A stretch of DNA of 20,000 nucleotides from Chiloscyllium plagiosum (Eukaryota). Within the stretch, counting starts at the first letter, position 1; the number at the start of each line of letters is the position of its first letter. The translations under genes were made by a program, and so were the position numbers. The stretch lies in contig NC_057756.1 in the NCBI RefSeq assembly GCF_004010195.1, positions 3,875,577 through 3,895,576 of the forward strand, read 5' to 3'. The notes under the pieces are model-generated. The model was given only the letters and a program-made list of their open reading frames with translations, was not told the origin of the DNA and did no database searches. Below, piece after piece: positions 1,491 to 19,780 of the stretch.

Positions 1491-3004
1491 ACATAGAAAA
1501 CTTTTCTTTTCAGCCCAATATTCATTGTGTTTCAAATCGCAGGAAAGAACAGAATATAATTTTATCGACCTGTCCTGTGCTGTATGAAATGCATGATCAT
1601 CAAGTACTAAAAGATTTTAAATCATAATGAATGTCATTTGTGTTTGTAAAATCTTGGTGACCGTCCTCTCCCAGATATGCTGCCTACATTAAGTAAACTA
1701 CTGATGTTTGAGTTGCTGTAAGGTTCTTGTTTGTATGATGGAAAGCCATACCACGCCGGTTGGCTGTTATATCATTCTTAAAAGCTATGCATACTGCTAC
1801 AACTCTGTAAATCAATTGAAAGAAGGAACTCCATTCATTTCTTGATACGTTTGTTAGCTGTTAGTTTGTTATTTCAATGAATTAAATGACCGTACTAACT
1901 AAGAACAACTCAGTATTTTTGCATTATTCACTCTCAAATATCCATGCCAGGACATGCAAAAAGGTTTTTAGTCGCGCCTCAAAACTTATAGAAGATAGAA
2001 CATTACAGCACAGTACAGGCTTTTTGGCCCTCGATGTTCCGCCGCCGTGTCACACTAATCTGAAGCCCATCCCACCTACACTATTCCATGTACGTCCATA
2101 TGCCTGTCCAGTGACGACTTAAATGCACTTAAACTTGGCGAATCTACTACCATTGCAGGCAAAGCGTTGCATACCCTTACTAATGTCTGAGTAAAGAAAC
2201 TACCTCTGACACCTCTCTTATATCTATCTCCCCTCACTTTAAAGTTGTGTTGCCTCGTGTTTGCTGTCCCCATACTTGGAAAAAGGCTCTCCCTGTCCAC
2301 CCTAACTAACCCTCTGATTGTCTTGCATGTCTCTATTAAGTTACCGCTCAACCTTCTTCTCTCTTACGAGAACAGCCTCAAGGCCCTCATCCTTTCCACG
2401 TAAGACATTCCTTCCATACCAGGCAACATCCTAGTAAATCTCCTCTGCACCCTTTCCAAAGCTTCCACATCCTTCTTATAATGCGGTGATCAGAACTATA
2501 CACAATACTCCAAGTGTGGCCGTACCAGAGCTTTGTACAGCTGCAGCATAACCTCCTGGTTCCGGAACTCAATCCCCCTATTAATAAAGGCCAAAACACT
2601 GTATGTCTTCTTAACAACCCTGTCAATCTAGGTGGCAACTTTCAGGGATCTGTGTACATGTACACCGAGATCTCTCTGATCATCTGCACTCCCAAGAATC
2701 TTACCATTTGCCCAGTATTTTGCATTCCGATTACTCCATCCAAAGTGTATCACCTCACACTTGTCAACATTAAATTCCATTTTCAATCTCTCAGCCCAGC
2801 TCTTCATCCTATCTATGTCTCTCTGCAACATACTACATCCTTTGTCACGATCCACAACTCCATTGACCTTCGTGTCGTCCGCAAATTTACTAACCCACTC
2901 TTCTAAGCCCTCATCCAGGTCATTTATAAAAATGACGAACGACAGTGGACCTGACAAAGACCCTTGCGGTACGCCGCTAGTAACTGGACACCAAGATGAA
3001 CATG

Positions 3005-3177
3005 AGAGAAAGTGAGGGCTGCAGATTCTGGAGATCAGAGCTGAAAATGTGTTGCTGGAAAAGCGCAGCAGGTCAGGCAGCATCCAAGGAACAGGAGAAG
3101 GCTTATGCCCGAAACGTCGGTTCTCCTGTTCCTTGGATGCTGCTGACCTGATGCGCTTTTCCAGCAACACATTTTCA
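3005..3177. mobile_element. Short foldback non-autonomous element (Penelope pLTR-like, partial hammerhead) inserted in the CR1 RT
   Basis: 15-bp TSD ACCAAGATGAACATG at 2990-3004 and 3178-3192. Inverted arms 3042-3099 and 3121-3177. Loop GGCTTATGCCCGAAACGTCGG. Confidence 0.9.
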
Positions 3178-3757
3178 ACCAAGATGAACATGTTCCATCA
3201 ACTACCACCCTCTGTTTTCTTTCAGCACGCCAATTAATTATTCAAACTGCTTTGTCTCCCACAATCCCATTCCTCTGCATTTTGTTTAATAGCCTACTAT
3301 GGGGAACCCTATCGAATGCCTTGCTGAAATCCATATTCACCACATCAACCTGTTCACTCTCATCTACCTGTTTGGTCACTTTGTCAAAAAACTCAATAAG
3401 ATTCGTTAGGCACGATCTACCCTTCACAAAACCGTGCTGACTGTCCCTAGTCAGATTATACTTTTCTAGATGGTTATAAATCTTATCTCTTATTACCTTT
3501 TCCAACACTTTACCAACAACTGAAGTGAGACTCACTGGTCTGTAATTACCAGGGTTTTCTCTACTAACCATTTTGAACAAGAGAATCACATTTGTTGTCC
3601 TCCAGTCCTCAAACACTATTCCTGTCGACAATGATTATTTGAAGATCAATGCCAAAGGCTTGGCAATCCCTTCCTTTGCTTCCCAGTCGATCCAAGGATA
3701 GATCCCATCCAGCCCTGGGGACTTGTCTATTTTCACACTCTGCAATATTTCTAATAC

Positions 3758-3974
3758 GTTGAAACTTTATTGCAGGAACAGCACAGCAGGTCAGGCAGCA
3801 TCCAGGGAACAGGAGATTCGACGTTTCGGGCACAGGCCCTTCTTCATTCCTGAAGAAGGGCCTGTTTCCAAAACGTCGAATCTCCTGTTCCCTGGATGCT
3901 GCCTGACCTGCTGTGCTGTTCCAGCAATAAATCAACTTTGATCTCCAGCATCTGCAGACCTCACTTTCTCCTCG
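3758..3974. mobile_element. Short foldback non-autonomous element (Penelope pLTR-like, hammerhead at centre) inserted in CR1 ORF2
   Basis: 14-bp TSD AATATTTCTAATAC at 3744-3757 and 3975-3988. About 80-bp inverted arms 3766-3846 and 3851-3931 around TTCC. The unpaired tail GATCTCCAGCATCTGCAGACCTCACTTTCTC is shared, in opposite orientation, with the 3005 element. Confidence 0.92.
3846..3881 (+). ncRNA. Minimal type I hammerhead ribozyme motif (mutated copy)
   Basis: ATTC-CTGAAGA-A-GGGCCTGTTTCC-AAAAC-GTC-GAAT. Stem I (ATTC/GAAT), the CUGANGA box and the GUC site are present. The opposite arm preserves intact stem II and GAAA (GGGC-CTGT-GCCC-GAAAC-GTC). Confidence 0.7.
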
Positions 3975-5349
3975 AATATTTCTAATACCTCTTCCTTGTG
4001 AACCTCAATTTCTTCGAGTTTAGATGGAATTGTCTCTGTATCTTTCTCGCCAACATTTTCATTTTCTATAGTGAACACTGTCGAAAAATATTTATTTAGT
4101 GCTCCCCTATCTCCTCTGACTCCATACACAACTTCTTACAATTATCCTTGATTGGCCCTAATTTAACTCTCGTCATTCTTTTATTCCTGACAAAACTATG
4201 GAAAGACTTAGGGTCAACGCTGATCCTATCCACCAACAACTTATCACGTCTCCTCCTGGCTCTTCTGAGCTCTCTTTTTAGGTCTTTCCTGTCTTCCGTG
4301 TAACCTTCAAGCGCCCTAACTGAGTTTTCTCATTTTGTCCCAACAAAAGCCTTCTTCTTGACCAGGGATTCCACTTCCTTAGTAAACCACGGCTCACACA
4401 TTCTATATCTTCCTCCCTGCCTGACAGGTACATACTTATCTAGGACGCACAGGAGTTTTTCCTTGAATAAGCTCCACATTTTTAATGTGCTGCAGTTTCC
4501 TTCCCCATTCTACGCTTCCGAAGTCTTTCCTAATTGCTTCGTAATTTCCCTTCTCCCAGCTGTAACTCTTGCTTGGTGGAGTAAACCTATCCCTTTCCAT
4601 CACTGAAGTAAACCTGACAGAATTGTGATCGCTGTCTCCAAAGTGCTCACCTACTTCCAAATCTAACACCTTGCCAGGCTCGTTTCCCAGTACTAAATCG
4701 AAAGTGGCTTCGCCCCTTGTAGGCCTGCCTCCATACTGTGGCAGGAAACGCTCCTGCACACATTGGACAAAAACTCACCCATCTATAGTACCTGTACTGT
4801 AGTGATCCCAGTCAATATTTGGATCGGTGAAGTCCCCCATGACAACTACCCTGCCTCTCTCACTCCTAAAGAGAATCATCTTTGCTATCCTTCCCACTAC
4901 ATCACTGAGTGTATTCGGAGGTTTGCAGAACACTTCCAGCATGGTGACTTCTCCTTTCCTGTTTCTAACCACAGCCCATACTACCTCAGTTAACGAGCCC
5001 CCAAAGACCCTTTGTACAACTGTAATATTGTCCCTGATCAACAATGCCACACCTCCCCCTCTTTTGACATCTTCTCTGTTCTTACTGAAACATCCGAATC
5101 CTGGAACCTGCAGTAGCCATTCCTGTCCCTGCTCTATCCATGTCTCCGTAATGACCACAACATCGAAGTCCTAGGTACCAACCCACACTGCAAGTTCATT
5201 CACTTTATTTCGGATTCTCCTCGCATTAAAGTACGCACACTTCAAACCAGGTGCTTGCTTGCCAGTGTCAGATACTTGATTTTAGAACTCCCTACTCTCA
5301 TCCTCTTCTGTTCCTGTCCTATAATTTTGGTTCCCATCCCCCTGCTGTA

Positions 5350-5603
5350 TTAGTTTAAATCCACGTTAATAGCTTTAGCGAATTTCCCACCCAGAATATT
5401 GGTACCCCGCTGGTTTAGGTAAAGACCATCCTGCTTGTAGACGTCCGACCTACCCCAGAAATAGCTCAAATTATCCAAAAACCCGAAACCCTCCCTCCTG
5501 CACAATCTCTGTAGCCACGTGATCTACTTCTTTCTCTCCGTGTTCCTCACCTCACTAGCACGGGTAGCAAACCAAAGAAAACATCTCAGTTTGTCCTGGC
5601 TCT
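5350..5603 (-). pseudogene. C-terminal remnant of CR1 ORF1 (SGNH/GDSL esterase-like)
   Basis: Manual translation gives RARTN*DVFFGLLP / RASEVRNTER / WLQRLCRREGFGFLDNLSYFWGRSDVYKQDGLYLNQRGTNILGGKFAKAINVDLN*. DGLYLN corresponds to the DGLHL block of CR1 ORF1 esterases. Stop codon at 5350-5352. Confidence 0.85.
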
Positions 5604-5649
5604 GTTCTACTTACCCTTCGCAGAAGTCCTATGCTCGCTCCTCCCTCAC

Positions 5650-5908
5650 TGGCCTGAAGTTAAGAAGTTTAAATATACTTACCGGCCTTCCCAACAATCA
5701 CTTCGCACCAACATCACCTCCTCCCGGCTCCCGCCTCCTGCCTCCCGCCTCCCGCCTCCCGCCTCCCGCCTCCCGCCTCCCGCCTCTCACTGCTCCGAAG
5801 TGGACCGTTGGTCTAAAGTTAAGAAGTCTAAATATACTTACCGGCCTTCCCAACAATCACCTCGCACCAACGTCACCTCCTCCCGGCTCCCGCCTCTCGC
5901 TGCTCCGA
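5650..5908 (-). repeat. Two tandem monomers in the CR1 5' UTR, one with a (CCTCCCG)n expansion
   Basis: 5650-5798 and 5809-5908 are near-identical. The first is 49 bp longer because of seven extra CCTCCCG-type heptamers (array about 5718-5786). Confidence 0.9.
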
Positions 5909-7434
5909 TGTGCTTTGAAGTGCTGTTTCAGTTTTAAGTCACAAAAGGCCAAACGATAAATATAGTAAAACAAAAAGATAATACAGTCGAATGATCACAA
6001 ATGGATCGGTAGTGCACTCAGAGTAGATGCCCCCCTCACTTTCTCTGTACTGATGCTTTACAATATGTCAGCTTTGCAGTGGTCAGGTTGTGCAAGTATC
6101 ATCAAAAAATCACTATTGGTCTTCTGACTGTGAAGAATCATCTATGTGCTGTGCTTCCAACAGAAAACCATCCAAAAATGATATCTGCATTTGAGCAATT
6201 TTGTATCATTTGTGAATTTATGTTCACAATTCGAAATGTTGTTCGGAAGTGAGAGATAATTTAACAATTCCACGTTTTTAAAACTAAAATTTTATTGAAA
6301 AAGAAATGATGTCATATATTTGCTCTGACAGAGCGTCAACTTGACGACCAAATTAAAAGTAAGTGTTTATTTTATTGTCCTCTGATTTGTATCAAAATTC
6401 TCCGAGTTATATCAAGCTTTTGAGTGAACGCTCTTTCTTGACTTTATTCGAACTGACCTCTTTCCACTGAAATGCGATTGTTTTAGAGCTGAAAGATAAA
6501 TGTGGAAGTGAAGGCAAGTATTCACCTGTGAATGAGCAAATATGCTTTCCCGTACGTTTGATGCAATATAGGAATAAATGAATAATGTTTTGTACAATCA
6601 TTATTATATTGACAAAACTAAAACACTGTTGAACACATGCCAAAAAAAAACATATTCTGGTGCTGGTGTACCGTTGCTCTTCTTATAATGTTATGACTTA
6701 TTAATGCTTTAACACGTGACAGATTGCTGTACTGTAAAAATAATTAAAATTTGAATTTGTGTCACTGGATGAGATTTTTTAAATGTGCCAGATAACGGTC
6801 AGGTACTTTTTCTTAGTAGCTTTTGAGATACACAGAGAGCAGATAAAGACACAATTGTTATATAGTCCTGTATAGTGAGGTCAGATGTAAGCATTTATCA
6901 TTGTGCATTTTAAAGAATCAGACAACAACCAGCAATAAATCTCCACAATATGTGAATACTTATTGTCACATAAAATGAAGCAGAATTGTTATGTGAGTTG
7001 ATTAGATTATTAACTAAATCATATTTGCTTATACACTGCGGACATTATAAATGTTTGAACACCATATACAACAGGTATGGTTGGCACCAAGGCTGAATTT
7101 TTAGCTCATGGAATTCCTTTCATCTTGCTCTTTCTCTTTGCAGAATATTTTGAACTCCAACGTTCCGGTCCTGTGGAGTTTAATATGAAGGAGTGAGATT
7201 AGATAACACCTTCTACCACATTATTATTAGCACCACAACCGTCATCATTCTAGCAAGAAAGGTGCATGTAACAGTTTTCTTTCTTCTCTCATGCCTTGGA
7301 AAAACATCATATATATGCAGGTTAACGTACGTTTTTTGGGAGGCAAAAAAAATTATTTGTCTTGCAACAATCCATTCGTGTATCACTTTCTACTATATTT
7401 TGGAATTCCACATTTTCTTCTGGTACCAATAATC

Positions 7435-13538: not shown

Positions 13539-15355
13539 ATTTAAGCAACTATGGTGAAACAAAATTTGGTTCGCAGTCGAACTCGATTTTCTTAACGAAA
13601 TGCTCCTGACTAAAAACGCCAGGTGTATTTTTTTGTCCAAACTGTCACAATGTTTACCTCTGTTCATTCGCAAAATTGTCTTACCAACGACTATGCAGGT
13701 CTTTAAGCTGGGCCATTGGAATTTCGTTCCGCTCGGATATCGGATTGGCTTTCTTCCAACTCGATTTCGTAGGTCAGCATTGATCTTCTCCCGTATCTTC
13801 TTGGGTTGTTGCATGTCGTTCTACCACATGCCTTGTTGTGAGTCTTCACTTCGACGTGACTTCAAGGTACTTTTATTCCCGTTGCCCCCGGTCTCTGCGG
13901 GTGTTCTGTAATGTTTGAAGTAATGAATACAGTTCAAATCAGTAAATGGAGGAGAGTTAACGTATTTCACTATTGATGGGAAGCTTTGAAACGTGCACAA
14001 ATGAAATGAACTCAAGCTGCCAGAATGTTTCATCAATACTGTTCTAATACACAACACTCGGACTGTTGGTTCGGAGTTTTCTCTGACACTGCTGATTTCT
14101 TTGGTCTGATTCTGATAACTGAACTCTGTGACAAACAACTGCAGGTTCAAGTATAATTTAGTTTAATTAATTTTCTTTCAGGGTACAGTTCCCTAAATAT
14201 TGATGCTTTTAGATATTTTTCTGACACTGTGTTTATTTGAGTACACTTGATATCTCATTCACGTGTATGTTATACATAAATCAATCAATCTCTTATTCGA
14301 AAATCATGCTCTATTCTGGCACCATGACATTTCCACACCTGACATAGCTGTGATGCTGTGCAATGCTATGACTGGCAATCAAAAGTTGGAAATTCCTACG
14401 TGGTCCAAAAATTTATTTTAAGTCTTGTTCGCATAATTTCATGAAATAACTATCTCTCCTTAAACGCATACCTACTTCTGCCCCAAGTACCGCTCTACAA
14501 AACCTGGAAACCAACCATATACTGCTTAGCTGGAAAAATTATGAAGTGTCTTTCATCCCATTACTCGTTTGGTATTCTACCACCGTCACAGTATCCATTG
14601 ACCACTACGTTGTGTAATTGTCTCACTAGATTTATACAAAATTGAGGTCTGAATTGAAATAGTGCTCTTACATTCCACGGCTCTTGCATCACAATATATG
14701 ACCAATATATTTTCATTTTGATATCTGTTGGTAAACTGGTTATTAGAATACATAAAAGACAAAATATAACAGTTTGGTCTTCTCAAAATAATGCGTAGTT
14801 TGAATTTTCTTGATAGGTATGTGCTCCAGTAATGTTATCAGAATGCATTAATGAAGGAATCCCCTTTTTATAGATGGACATTCCATCTGGTAGAAGAGAA
14901 AAGAAGGCTGGAATGAAAAATTGCTCGATATTGCAACTTTTCATAAAAGGTCATTACCAGCGCTGAAACTTTTTATATAAATGATATCTTCTCATATGCC
15001 TGTATTATTATTTTAACTTATTCTCACACTCAAGCAAATAATCACTCCATTTACAAAATCTTTTTCCACTGCACTCTTTTTGAAACACATTTGATTTTTA
15101 AAAAGCATTTATTTTAAAATTGGTTTCATCACCCTTTCATTGTTCTCTTGTGTAAGGTATATGTTTTCCCTTGCCGCTCTTTATACTTTGATGAATGATG
15201 TGATCATCTGTCCATCTTGTTTAAGTTGTACTGTTCATTTCCGGACAGGTTATACTCTCAAAGTCACCGTTCAACTTCACGGTGAATTTTGGCCCTTCAC
15301 TTCAGCCGTCAATTACGTTATTATGTTGGTACTTGGAGAATTCAGCAATCCATTC

Positions 15356-18419: not shown

Positions 18420-19780
18420 TGCGTATCTTGAGGCAGAAGGATGTTTTTCCGGCCATTCCTGAGCTTAAGTATATGCGAGCAATAATATTATGCAAGGAAT
18501 GAAAGATTCTCTTGATGAGTTAATTGGACGGGACGGGGGGGGGGGATTAAGAAATGTGGGGACGTAAGCTGTTGCGATCAGCAGTGATGAGACAAAATTG
18601 AATGTTGAGAGTGTTGCAGACTCAGAGCGACGAAGGTAAGTAGACATGGCAGTCAAGAGGAGAAAACGAATACTGCAGATACTGGAGATCAGAGTCGAAA
18701 AGTGTGGTGCAGGAAAAGCACAGCCAGTCATGCAGCATCCGAGGAGTAGGAGTAGTCGTTTCGAGCATAATCTCATTTTCAAGAAACTGGTAGGCAAGCG
18801 CACGATAAACAATGAGGGAAGACTGATAAATTAAATTTCATTTATCTCATGAATTTTGACAGACAAAGAGACGAATTGAGGGCATAGATTGTTACATGGG
18901 GCTGCAATAATCAAGCTATTACAGAAGCATGGCTGAAAGAAGGACCAAACAGGCACCACAATGTTCTGGAGTACTGATGGCATTGGAAGAATTTAATGGG
19001 AAGCAGGAGACGTGAGGAGCGAATCTTTTAATTGTGAAAAACATCACAGCAGTACTAAGAAAGGGTATTAAGGGATCATCCATTAATATTATACTTGGCT
19101 GAAACTGGAAAAGTAGAAGGATGTGATCATTTTTATCGGTTTGGAAGAGAGGCCCTAAAGTAGTATATGGGAAATTAAAGGCCAAATATATGGAGCGAGA
19201 GTAGATAGCTGAAAGGATAACAATGTTGTAGTAATAGTTGTTGTAACTTTCCAAGCATAGATTGTTACTGCAATAGCATTCAGGGCTTCAATGGGGAGAC
19301 ATTTGATCAGTGTGTTGAGGAAATTAGATTGAAGATAATTATTTGCAGAACGTCCTACAATATAATGGTTAAAATACCTATTTGACCTGCAAAATAAGGC
19401 AAGAGAAGTGATTCGGGTGTCAGCTGGTGAGCTCTTTTGGATCATTGACTATGTTTTTACTAGTTTTACAACAGCAACCAGAATGGATTGGCGTACAAAA
19501 CTTAAGTATCTAAATTGGGGAAAGGCCAGCTCGACATGAACTTTCGAAAGTTGTTTGGTGGAGGCTGTTCACAGGTACATGGATATCTGGCAAGTGAGAG
19601 GCTGTCAAAGGTGAGATAACGGACATTAACTAATAGCATGTTCCTTATCGTGTGAAGGGTAAAGTCAGCATGAGTAGGAATATTGGATGACAAGACATTC
19701 GAGGCTGGTGTCAAAATAATAAAGGAGGAATATGTCAGGTTTAGGCAGCTAGGATCAAGTGAATTCCTCACGGAGAGGAG
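18420..19780 (+). mobile_element. Old CR1 fragment (ORF1 end/linker plus endonuclease region of ORF2)
   Basis: Decayed homology, in the correct order, to the large CR1: DELRA, AITEAWLKEG, NVLEY, KNITAV, NFPSID, LNWGKA and later linker sequence. The 18420-18655 part is weaker. Confidence 0.8.
18657..18786 (-). mobile_element. Single-arm copy of the hammerhead-type element nested in CR1
   Basis: GAGGAGAAAA..ACTGCAGATACTGGAGATCAGAG..GGAAAAGCACAGC..GCAGCATCC..CGTTTCGAGCATAA aligns with the long arm of the 3005 and 3758 elements. It ends at the decayed hammerhead. Confidence 0.85.

Follow-up and report, generated by a model that had tools for sequence, protein, structure and literature searches.

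The systems closest to the locus analyzed here are Penelope-like elements (PLEs), in particular those that carry an endonuclease (EN+). For these, the available part of Arkhipova et al. 2013 (PMC3846280) describes (i) an inverted pLTR, (ii) a tail at one end, and (iii) palindromes at the inverted junction; self-priming was proposed from similar palindromes, and TATA/Inr-like letters were reported in rotifer pLTRs. A bias of PLE insertions for microsatellites has also been reported in the literature. In the work of Frangieh et al. 2024 (PMC11167929) on PAc (Poseidon of Anolis carolinensis), the enzyme nicked both strands of the target and extended each of them, and there were two adjacent internal start sites for the reverse transcriptase (RT), the genomic tail being the stretch between them; hammerhead mutants were without effect on insertion in vitro. 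According to the accessible portion of Cervera and De la Pena 2014 (PMC4209133), metazoan PLEs carry minimal hammerheads (min-HHR) that are present as thousands of solo copies per genome, and dual min-hammerheads are found 100 to 700 bp apart on opposite strands. A literature search combining hammerhead, Penelope-like, and shark returned only a review and no paper on such elements in sharks.

The locus lies in a stretch of 20,000 nucleotides of Chiloscyllium plagiosum DNA, here called the window, in which an insert of 217 bp (3758-3974) has landed in a decayed LINE. The features of the host and of the insert are as follows.

2628 to 5170, minus strand: decayed LINE with AP-type endonuclease and reverse transcriptase, host of the insertion (Pfam on open reading frames [ORFs])
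4775 to 5170, minus strand: Exo_endo_phos domain (E value, 4.4e-7)
3242 to 3634, minus strand: RVT_1 domain (E value, 1.4e-15)
2628 to 2990, minus strand: RVT_1 domain (E value, 3.7e-11)
3744 to 3757, no strand: left copy of the target-site duplication, AATATTTCTAATAC, 14 nt, 100% identical to 3975-3988
3758 to 3846, minus strand: inverted "short" arm, unit positions 5 to 93 on the minus strand
3847 to 3850, plus strand: symmetry centre TTCC, which with A3846 gives ATTCC, the first bases of the plus arm
3846 to 3936, plus strand: body of the "long" arm, unit positions 0 to 93, minus 3 bp
3937 to 3974, plus strand: "tail," an extra 37 to 38 nt, TTTGATCTCC...CTTTCTCCTCG, at one end of the insert only
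3975 to 3988, no strand: right copy of the target-site duplication, an exact match to 3744-3757

An inverted-repeat scan returned arms at 3766-3846 and 3851-3931, 81 nt each, 95% complementary and separated by 4 nt, and alignment to family copies extended the arms to the left end of the insert, so that the left arm covers 3758-3846. This agrees with the first-pass annotation, which had described a 217-bp insert with a 14-bp duplication and inverted arms of about 80 bp. At its outer end, the short arm reads GTTGAAAC, which is complementary to the short 3' end ...GTTTCAAC of the repeated unit. This arm has neither the tail nor C3 and so holds no hammerhead; it carries one private change, at unit position 77. 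The long arm has lost 3 bp near 3932 (family AATAAAGTTTCAAC, here AATAAATCAAC), and an ATG at 3897-3899 opens a short frame through the tail (MLPDLL..., 42 aa in longer copies). As RNA, the insert has a predicted folding energy of -162.6 kcal/mol, compared to -59.7 ± 4.5 for shuffled sequences (z = -23). Since the fold is far below that of the shuffles and the exact 36-nt hammerhead motif described below matches the genome 8,512 times versus 0 for a reversed control, the structure is not due to chance. Judging from the predicted fold, RNA of the window copy would form one long hairpin in which the hammerhead would be locked in 89 bp.

The architecture matches the published insertion architecture of PLEs, and the shark family is a further example of a known element class. 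In common with EN+ PLE insertion units, as far as the available parts of Arkhipova et al. (PMC3846280) and Craig et al. 2021 (PMC8557442) describe them, it has a head-to-head inverted copy of the terminal repeat, a one-sided tail of 30 to 40 bp, variable target-site duplications, palindromic inverted junctions, and a terminal repeat that holds the first ORF codons and TATA/Inr-like letters. It differs from the units described in those parts in that nothing lies between the arms, there is no ORF and no direct pLTR, and the insert consists of two copies of the last 94/131 nt. The window insert is an inert, mutated by-product of this known retrotransposon class.

The same LINE contains another head-to-head dimer at 3005-3179, which is older, belongs to a related subfamily, and is flanked by a 13-bp duplication, CAAGATGAACATG, at 2992-3004 and 3180-3192. 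It again has one long and one short arm, namely, an inverted long arm from 3005 to about 3099 and a short arm from 3100 to 3179; in both arms, the truncation falls within the hammerhead or past it. A third relative, older and with a single arm, lies at 18657-18785 on the minus strand; it is 74% identical to the unit plus tail, and its boxes have decayed (TTGAAAA..., GAC). Elsewhere in the window, two overlapping open frames on the plus strand (5465-5959), in which the peptide PPPASRL recurs and a segment of about 50 aa is duplicated, are probably a tandem DNA repeat.

The plus strand at 3846-3881 reads ATTC-CTGAAGA-A-GGGC-CTGT-TTCC-AAAAC-GTC-GAAT, which comprises the following parts.

3846 to 3881, plus strand: minimal type I hammerhead motif, mutated here (read from the sequence)
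3846 to 3849 with 3878 to 3881, plus strand: stem I, ATTC/GAAT
3850 to 3856, plus strand: CTGAAGA box, followed by an unpaired A at 3857
3858 to 3861, plus strand: stem II GGGC, followed by the loop CTGT and by TTCC at 3866-3869 (GCCC in the family)
3870 to 3874, plus strand: AAAAC (GAAAC in the family), followed by GTC at 3875-3877
Between 3877 and 3878, plus strand: predicted cut

ATTCC at 3846-3850 corresponds to the 5' strand of stem I plus C3, and the centre TTCC belongs to the first bases of the plus arm, in line with the earlier placement of the inversion point at the 5' edge of the ribozyme. The first-pass annotation had assembled a complete hammerhead by combining the two arms. A minimal type I motif is indeed present beside the centre, but the full motif of family copies sits in one arm, so that piecing it together from two is unnecessary. 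In an alignment of 30 copies (the window copy and 29 others), the plus arm motif is intact (...GGGC-CTGT-GCCC-GAAAC-GTC-GAAT) in 28, the exceptions being the window copy and one other (L005). Family copies have the catalytic boxes CUGANGA ... GAAA ... UH in type I order, with AAAAC in place of GAAAC in the window copy, and the 28 intact copies together with the 8,512 exact 36-mers bear out the expectation of a conserved CUGANGA/GAAA core in the family. The aligned relatives have an unpaired A after CTGANGA. In the family copies, GAAAC-GTC gives the palindrome ACGT without a loop 3, and helix III would form only between two copies; this is the palindromic helix III (ACGU) of the PLE kind that had been recognized from the window.

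The window plus arm has three substitutions, two in stem II and one in GAAA, which are predicted to be disabling, so that the hammerhead of this copy is in all likelihood broken. The change of GAAA to AAAA had been listed before and stands, as does the verdict on the motif, but it is one of three substitutions (plus the 3-bp deletion) and not the only one. The AUGA of the minus arm, which had been taken for a second mutation of this copy, is nothing of the kind. The inverted arm reads ATGAAGA in every aligned copy, and C3 is missing from it in all 240 genomic copies that share the window junction; it never had C3 because the centre TTCC belongs only to the plus arm, and the inverted arm therefore starts 5 nt later.

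To count base pairs, we used 25 aligned relatives from a BLAST-based collection (72 to 100% identity), the rows of which are decayed genomic copies and not independent. Stem II was paired in 92.9% of the cells, and one of its pairs switches from GC (19) to AU (5); G10.1-C11.1 (pair 19-30) was GC in 15, GU in 9, and other in 1 of the 25 relatives. Stem I was paired in just 61% of the cells, its second pair being unpaired in 23/25 relatives. Pair 34-37 was AU in 22/24 relatives, and pair 35-36 was CG in 15, UG in 4, AU in 2, UA in 1, and other in 3. Pairs changed on both sides numbered 3 versus 3.0 in shuffles of these 25 decayed, nonindependent rows. Covariation, the suggested test of stems I and II, thus lends what appears to be modest support to the hammerhead helices. 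An isolated 51-nt piece is predicted to form stems I and II at -9.1 kcal/mol, which is no better than shuffles.

Rfam returned 0 hits in the whole window at the gathering score. Over 3700-4030 at E values of ≤10, there was no hammerhead and only hairpin look-alikes, the best being mir-3158 with 46 bits versus a gathering score of 97, and the intact tandem copy L095 (440-940) gave no hammerhead match either. The absence of such matches is expected, since the motif is without helix III. On the microRNA precursor models, the hairpin at 3783-3915 scores 46 bits for mir-3158 and 41 bits for mir-1791, far below the thresholds. A pattern search for other hammerheads in the loci, with a spacing rule that misses this family, gave 15 single matches that by eye were mostly unrelated to it. 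Compared with the min-HHR as presented in the accessible portion of PMC4209133, the shark motif shares (i) the type I form, (ii) a 4-bp helix I, (iii) an unpaired base between A9 and 10.1, (iv) G10.1-C11.1, (v) the lack of loop 3, (vi) the palindromic ACGU (15.2-16.2), (vii) its place within the terminal repeat of an element with RT and GIY-YIG, (viii) solo copies that number thousands in the genome, and (ix) pairing on opposite strands at a distance of 100 to 700 bp. Helix II, in contrast, has 4 bp here and 7 to 8 bp in the Schistosoma families described in that portion, and the window copy has its three substitutions.

We then consider the family to which the insert belongs. A search of the genome (3.56 Gb) with the insert gave 1,460 first-look candidates; the 40 that were scored were all 96 to 100% identical over nearly the full length, and at least 39 other copies are 96 to 97% identical to the window insert over 214 to 217 of 217 nt. 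The repeated unit, ATTCC...GTTTCAAC, has 94 nt and is found with or without the 37-nt tail; it inserts either singly or as a head-to-head dimer, and each such insertion is flanked by a target-site duplication of its own. Likewise, each copy in the 30-copy alignment has its own duplication, and duplications ranged from about 6 to 16 bp across copies in the sampled loci. The first 20 bases of the motif, when not preceded by the left arm of the window, matched the genome 2,956 times, and in the 30 loci inspected, monomers start at (A)TTCCTGAAGA, each again with its own duplication. The short 3' end, ...AATAAAGTTTCAAC, lies 94 nt from the start and is common to monomers and to the outer end of the inverted arm; the long 3' end is the short end plus the 37-nt tail and finishes with ...CTTTCTCCTC(G). 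An exact 30-nt anchor was found at 18,614 genome places and an exact 17-mer of the tail at 14,709, with unique sequence following the tail in most copies.

We based a census of arm ends on the first 100 anchor places, which are on one contig and gave 73 regions with 97 arms, and inspected 60 junction-selected loci besides. The 5' ends of 55/97 arms were within -3 to +6 of the A of ATTCC, 12/97 continued upstream into further element sequence (the parent 3' untranslated region [UTR]), and the remaining 30/97 were mostly truncated further in, 3 of them ending a few bases upstream. The 3' ends were short (94-97) in 34/97 arms, intermediate (100-111) in 7/97, and long (126-142) in 56/97. Single arms accounted for 49 of the 97. 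In all 24 dimers, a long end (126-142) was combined with a short or intermediate one (94-108), i.e., there was exactly one tail; because single arms are long in 32/49 cases, this pairing is far from random. The arm that is complete at the centre was not correlated with the arm that bears the tail. The stub form constitutes a large share of the sampled insertions.

These data bear on the possibility that the insert is a MITE or foldback DNA transposon moved by cut-and-paste, for which the long inverted arms and the flanking direct repeat would speak. The length of the duplication is not fixed among copies, however, the outermost ends are not mutual inverted repeats since the tail is unpaired, single-arm monomers are common, and the sequence belongs to a retroelement. 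We consider this explanation next to impossible and already refuted by the monomers and the PLE link; the earlier assignment to a retroelement rather than to a DNA-type MITE is upheld by the variable duplications, the monomers, and the PLE terminus.

The parent was located by walking out from copies that read through the tail. In copies that extend upstream of ATTCC, the unit is preceded by a 3' UTR and, farther out, by coding sequence. One locus (L178) contains an ORF of 292 aa, with the RT C terminus, a CX2C linker, and GIY-YIG, which is separated from the downstream unit by a short 3' UTR. The Pfam GIY-YIG match in this frame has an E value of 4e-4 and 21 bits, below the curated cutoff of 22.6. 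The frame has 166 longer homologues, the best of which are from two sharks, and many carry RVT_1 (PF00078) and GIY-YIG (PF01541). When the Pfam GIY-YIG model was run against the genome, only one weak hit was obtained; a genome search with the L178 frame gave 146,119 first-look candidates, of which 134 were scored and were 87 to 100% identical. The unit starts, with its first bases, 90 to 380 nt downstream of the endonuclease (EN) frame and on the same strand in 24/30 loci; of the others, 3/30 have a partial unit and 3/30, all with unread stretches, do not show it. By homology, the repeated unit is identified as the last 94 to 131 bases of a very abundant PLE with RT and a GIY-YIG EN, and the prediction that a PLE of this kind would share the terminus proved correct. 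None of the loci examined held a full-length parent that bears the unit at each of its ends. Without an upstream promoter region and without any ORF, the window insert would be dead on arrival.

Two side observations concern the parent and its copies. An annotated shark protein homologous to the parent RT/EN (P0001) has a C terminus (...LMKGLRPKR...) that looks as if the frame had run on through the 3' UTR and into a related hammerhead, and these residues are probably a gene-model artifact and not the real C terminus. Near 16.16 Mb of contig C1, two copies of the element that are separated by about 3 kb, L103 (minus strand, from about 905) and L172 (from about 470), lie directly next to a tandem repeat with a period of about 21 nt (...CTCTGTAACAGGCCCCAGGGT...).

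The link to the parent also weighs on a SINE-like origin, in which the element would be mobilized by a LINE such as the family that hosts the insert. The variable target-site duplications would fit, as they fit any target-primed reverse transcription, and the insert does lie within a LINE. Nevertheless, PLE copies have this unit as their 3' terminus in the 24 loci mentioned above, there is no A-rich or microsatellite tail in the 30-copy alignment, and head-to-head dimers with a one-sided 37-nt tail are hallmarks of PLEs in the available parts of the PLE literature, all of which makes this origin barely credible.

The tail is read through at 2,161 places; among the first 100, 21 have one continuation in common. 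Read-through into the PLE ORF was expected but rejected, as the frame ends at 42 aa and gives way to another unit in a 224-nt tandem. The copies L095 (337-1204) and L103 (minus strand, approximately 260-900) are tandems that lack an ORF and repeat every 224 nt (94 nt of unit, 37 nt of tail, and 93 nt of spacer), with an intact motif in each repeat, and L095 has 3 to 4 units inside one target-site duplication. The diagnostic junction of this tandem occurs at only 39 genome places. Metazoan retrozymes are reportedly short repeats that have type I hammerheads but no ORF. The tandem derivative with the 224-nt period is similar to these, whereas the window insert differs in that it is not a tandem and has its ends off the cut site.

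The first-pass annotation had called the insert retrozyme-like. A system of this type, in which tandem hammerhead transcripts self-cleave at GUC, circularize, and are copied back into DNA as circles, would be consistent with the ORF-less tandems, with the one multiunit copy that has its own duplication, and with a palindromic helix III that suits cleavage as a dimer. It would lead one to look for arm ends at the predicted cut, yet only 1 of the 97 census arms has its true 5' end beside it (at +33, the cut being after +31), and copies are not permuted around the cut. The 39 tandem junctions also contrast with the 18,614 arms, the window insert is neither a tandem nor bounded by the cut, and the hammerhead mutants of the anole PLE inserted in vitro like the wild type (PMC11167929). 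The retrozyme-like label is a poor fit, and we consider this route highly improbable.

Transcripts were sought in RNA runs. The single-cell poly-A run X19 gave 1,057 placed reads, 98% of which continue into unlike flanks, and there was no pile-up of molecule ends; run X20 gave no placed reads, and X1 and X2 are contigs of uncertain kind. Long perfect hairpins, if transcribed within host RNAs as the X19 reads suggest, could feed small-RNA pathways.

The remaining question is whether the palindrome is itself the mobile unit, as originally claimed, or whether its mirror half arises anew with each insertion. As a self-propagating foldback nonautonomous element, the 217- to 220-bp palindrome would be transcribed whole, moved by the PLE enzyme in trans, and pass on its junction. 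The many near-identical copies, the 240 genome occurrences of the exact 28-nt junction around the centre, and the identical left ends in 26 of the 30 aligned copies are in keeping with this. Several observations are not. (i) Among 30 loci with the window junction, the tail is on the right arm in 12, as in the window, and on the left arm in 14; a junction that occurs with either tail position makes inheritance from a single foldback master impossible. (ii) Three of the 30 (L061, L069, and L077) keep only a 12-nt inverted stub at this same junction, and 1 has an internally deleted arm. (iii) Junctions vary widely among otherwise identical copies, and many different ones were seen in the dimers of the inspected loci. 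(iv) In 51 distinct window-junction dimers (5 more were skipped for truncation or indels), we found 4 sites, in 4 dimers, with the same nonreference base in both arms, versus 13 one-arm sites at unit positions <86; had the palindrome been inherited whole, such sites would have required paired mutations. Since independent mutation would give essentially no mirrored sites, the two arms are copies of one template. (v) The left end of the insert is the short 3' end of monomers and thus reads as an RT start and not as an RNA 5' end. (vi) The 240 junctions are few compared to the 18,614 arms. (vii) No copy in the 30-copy alignment shares a 5' flank with another. The foldback element is thereby largely refuted, and we regard it as very unlikely. 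The tail on either arm, the varied junctions, the outer end that coincides with the monomer end, and the mirrored variants argue instead that the mirror arm is made at each insertion, so that the foldback is likely a by-product and not the mobile unit, its mirror half being built during landing.

With good probability, the insert is a head-to-head two-armed copy of a PLE end, most likely produced in one event in which the enzyme copied one short RNA from both nicked strands. The short and long 3' ends would represent two internal RT start sites, like those measured in vitro for the anole PLE, and each nicked target strand would prime at one of the two. Both cDNAs would then run to the 5' end of the RNA, at the A of ATTCC. 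This A sits in an initiator-like TCATTC, and a TTTTATC box, read from its letters, lies 26 to 32 nt upstream in the parent; the start of the RNA at ATTCC is deduced solely from the DNA copies and from these promoter-like letters. What places the symmetry axis at the 5' edge of the hammerhead would then be the likely start of the template RNA at this point, not the making of ends by the ribozyme. Finally, the two cDNA ends may be joined by self-priming, by a template jump, or by microhomology. The window junction is the perfect hairpin with a 4-nt loop (GGAA/TTCC) that would be expected of a self-primed full-length cDNA.

Two simpler routes were considered as sole explanations. Pure snap-back for all dimers was rejected because the tail is on the copied arm in 14/30 loci. 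Two independent cDNAs as the only route are not easily reconciled with the 12-nt inverted stubs, and they explain poorly why the window junction, with its single nucleotide of microhomology, recurs 240-fold. Taken singly, each of these two routes leaves some of the forms unexplained. The reading as a two-armed copy made at both nicked strands has close parallels in PAc (PMC11167929), which likewise has two start sites spaced by the length of the tail, a hammerhead near the ORF start, and no reads that end at the hammerhead cut. A difference is that the strands of PAc show no difference in start site in vitro, whereas all 24 dimers of the shark family combine one long and one short end.

By itself, the insert is of little importance, and its architecture of inverted terminal repeat, one-sided tail, and minimal hammerhead is already in print. 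The approximately 18,000 stubs may, however, be read as a fossil record of Penelope integration, a reading with three parts that we advance tentatively, since taken together they are possible rather than probable. (i) The dominant template would be a very short RNA, with an initiator-like start that coincides with the 5' edge of the hammerhead and with priming only 94 or 131 nt downstream. If so, most insertions would be promoter-proximal "suicide" copies. (ii) The nicked strands would use the two RT starts in strict alternation, giving one tail per dimer. (iii) Both arms would come from the same RNA molecule, which would imply one dimeric enzyme acting on one RNA, with the gap closed by self-priming or by an end-to-end template jump. 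The family offers thousands of near-identical insertions with readable junctions, in which it can be asked which strand starts where, how the two cDNAs join, and where the RNA begins. It would allow an in silico test of how PLE integration is completed.
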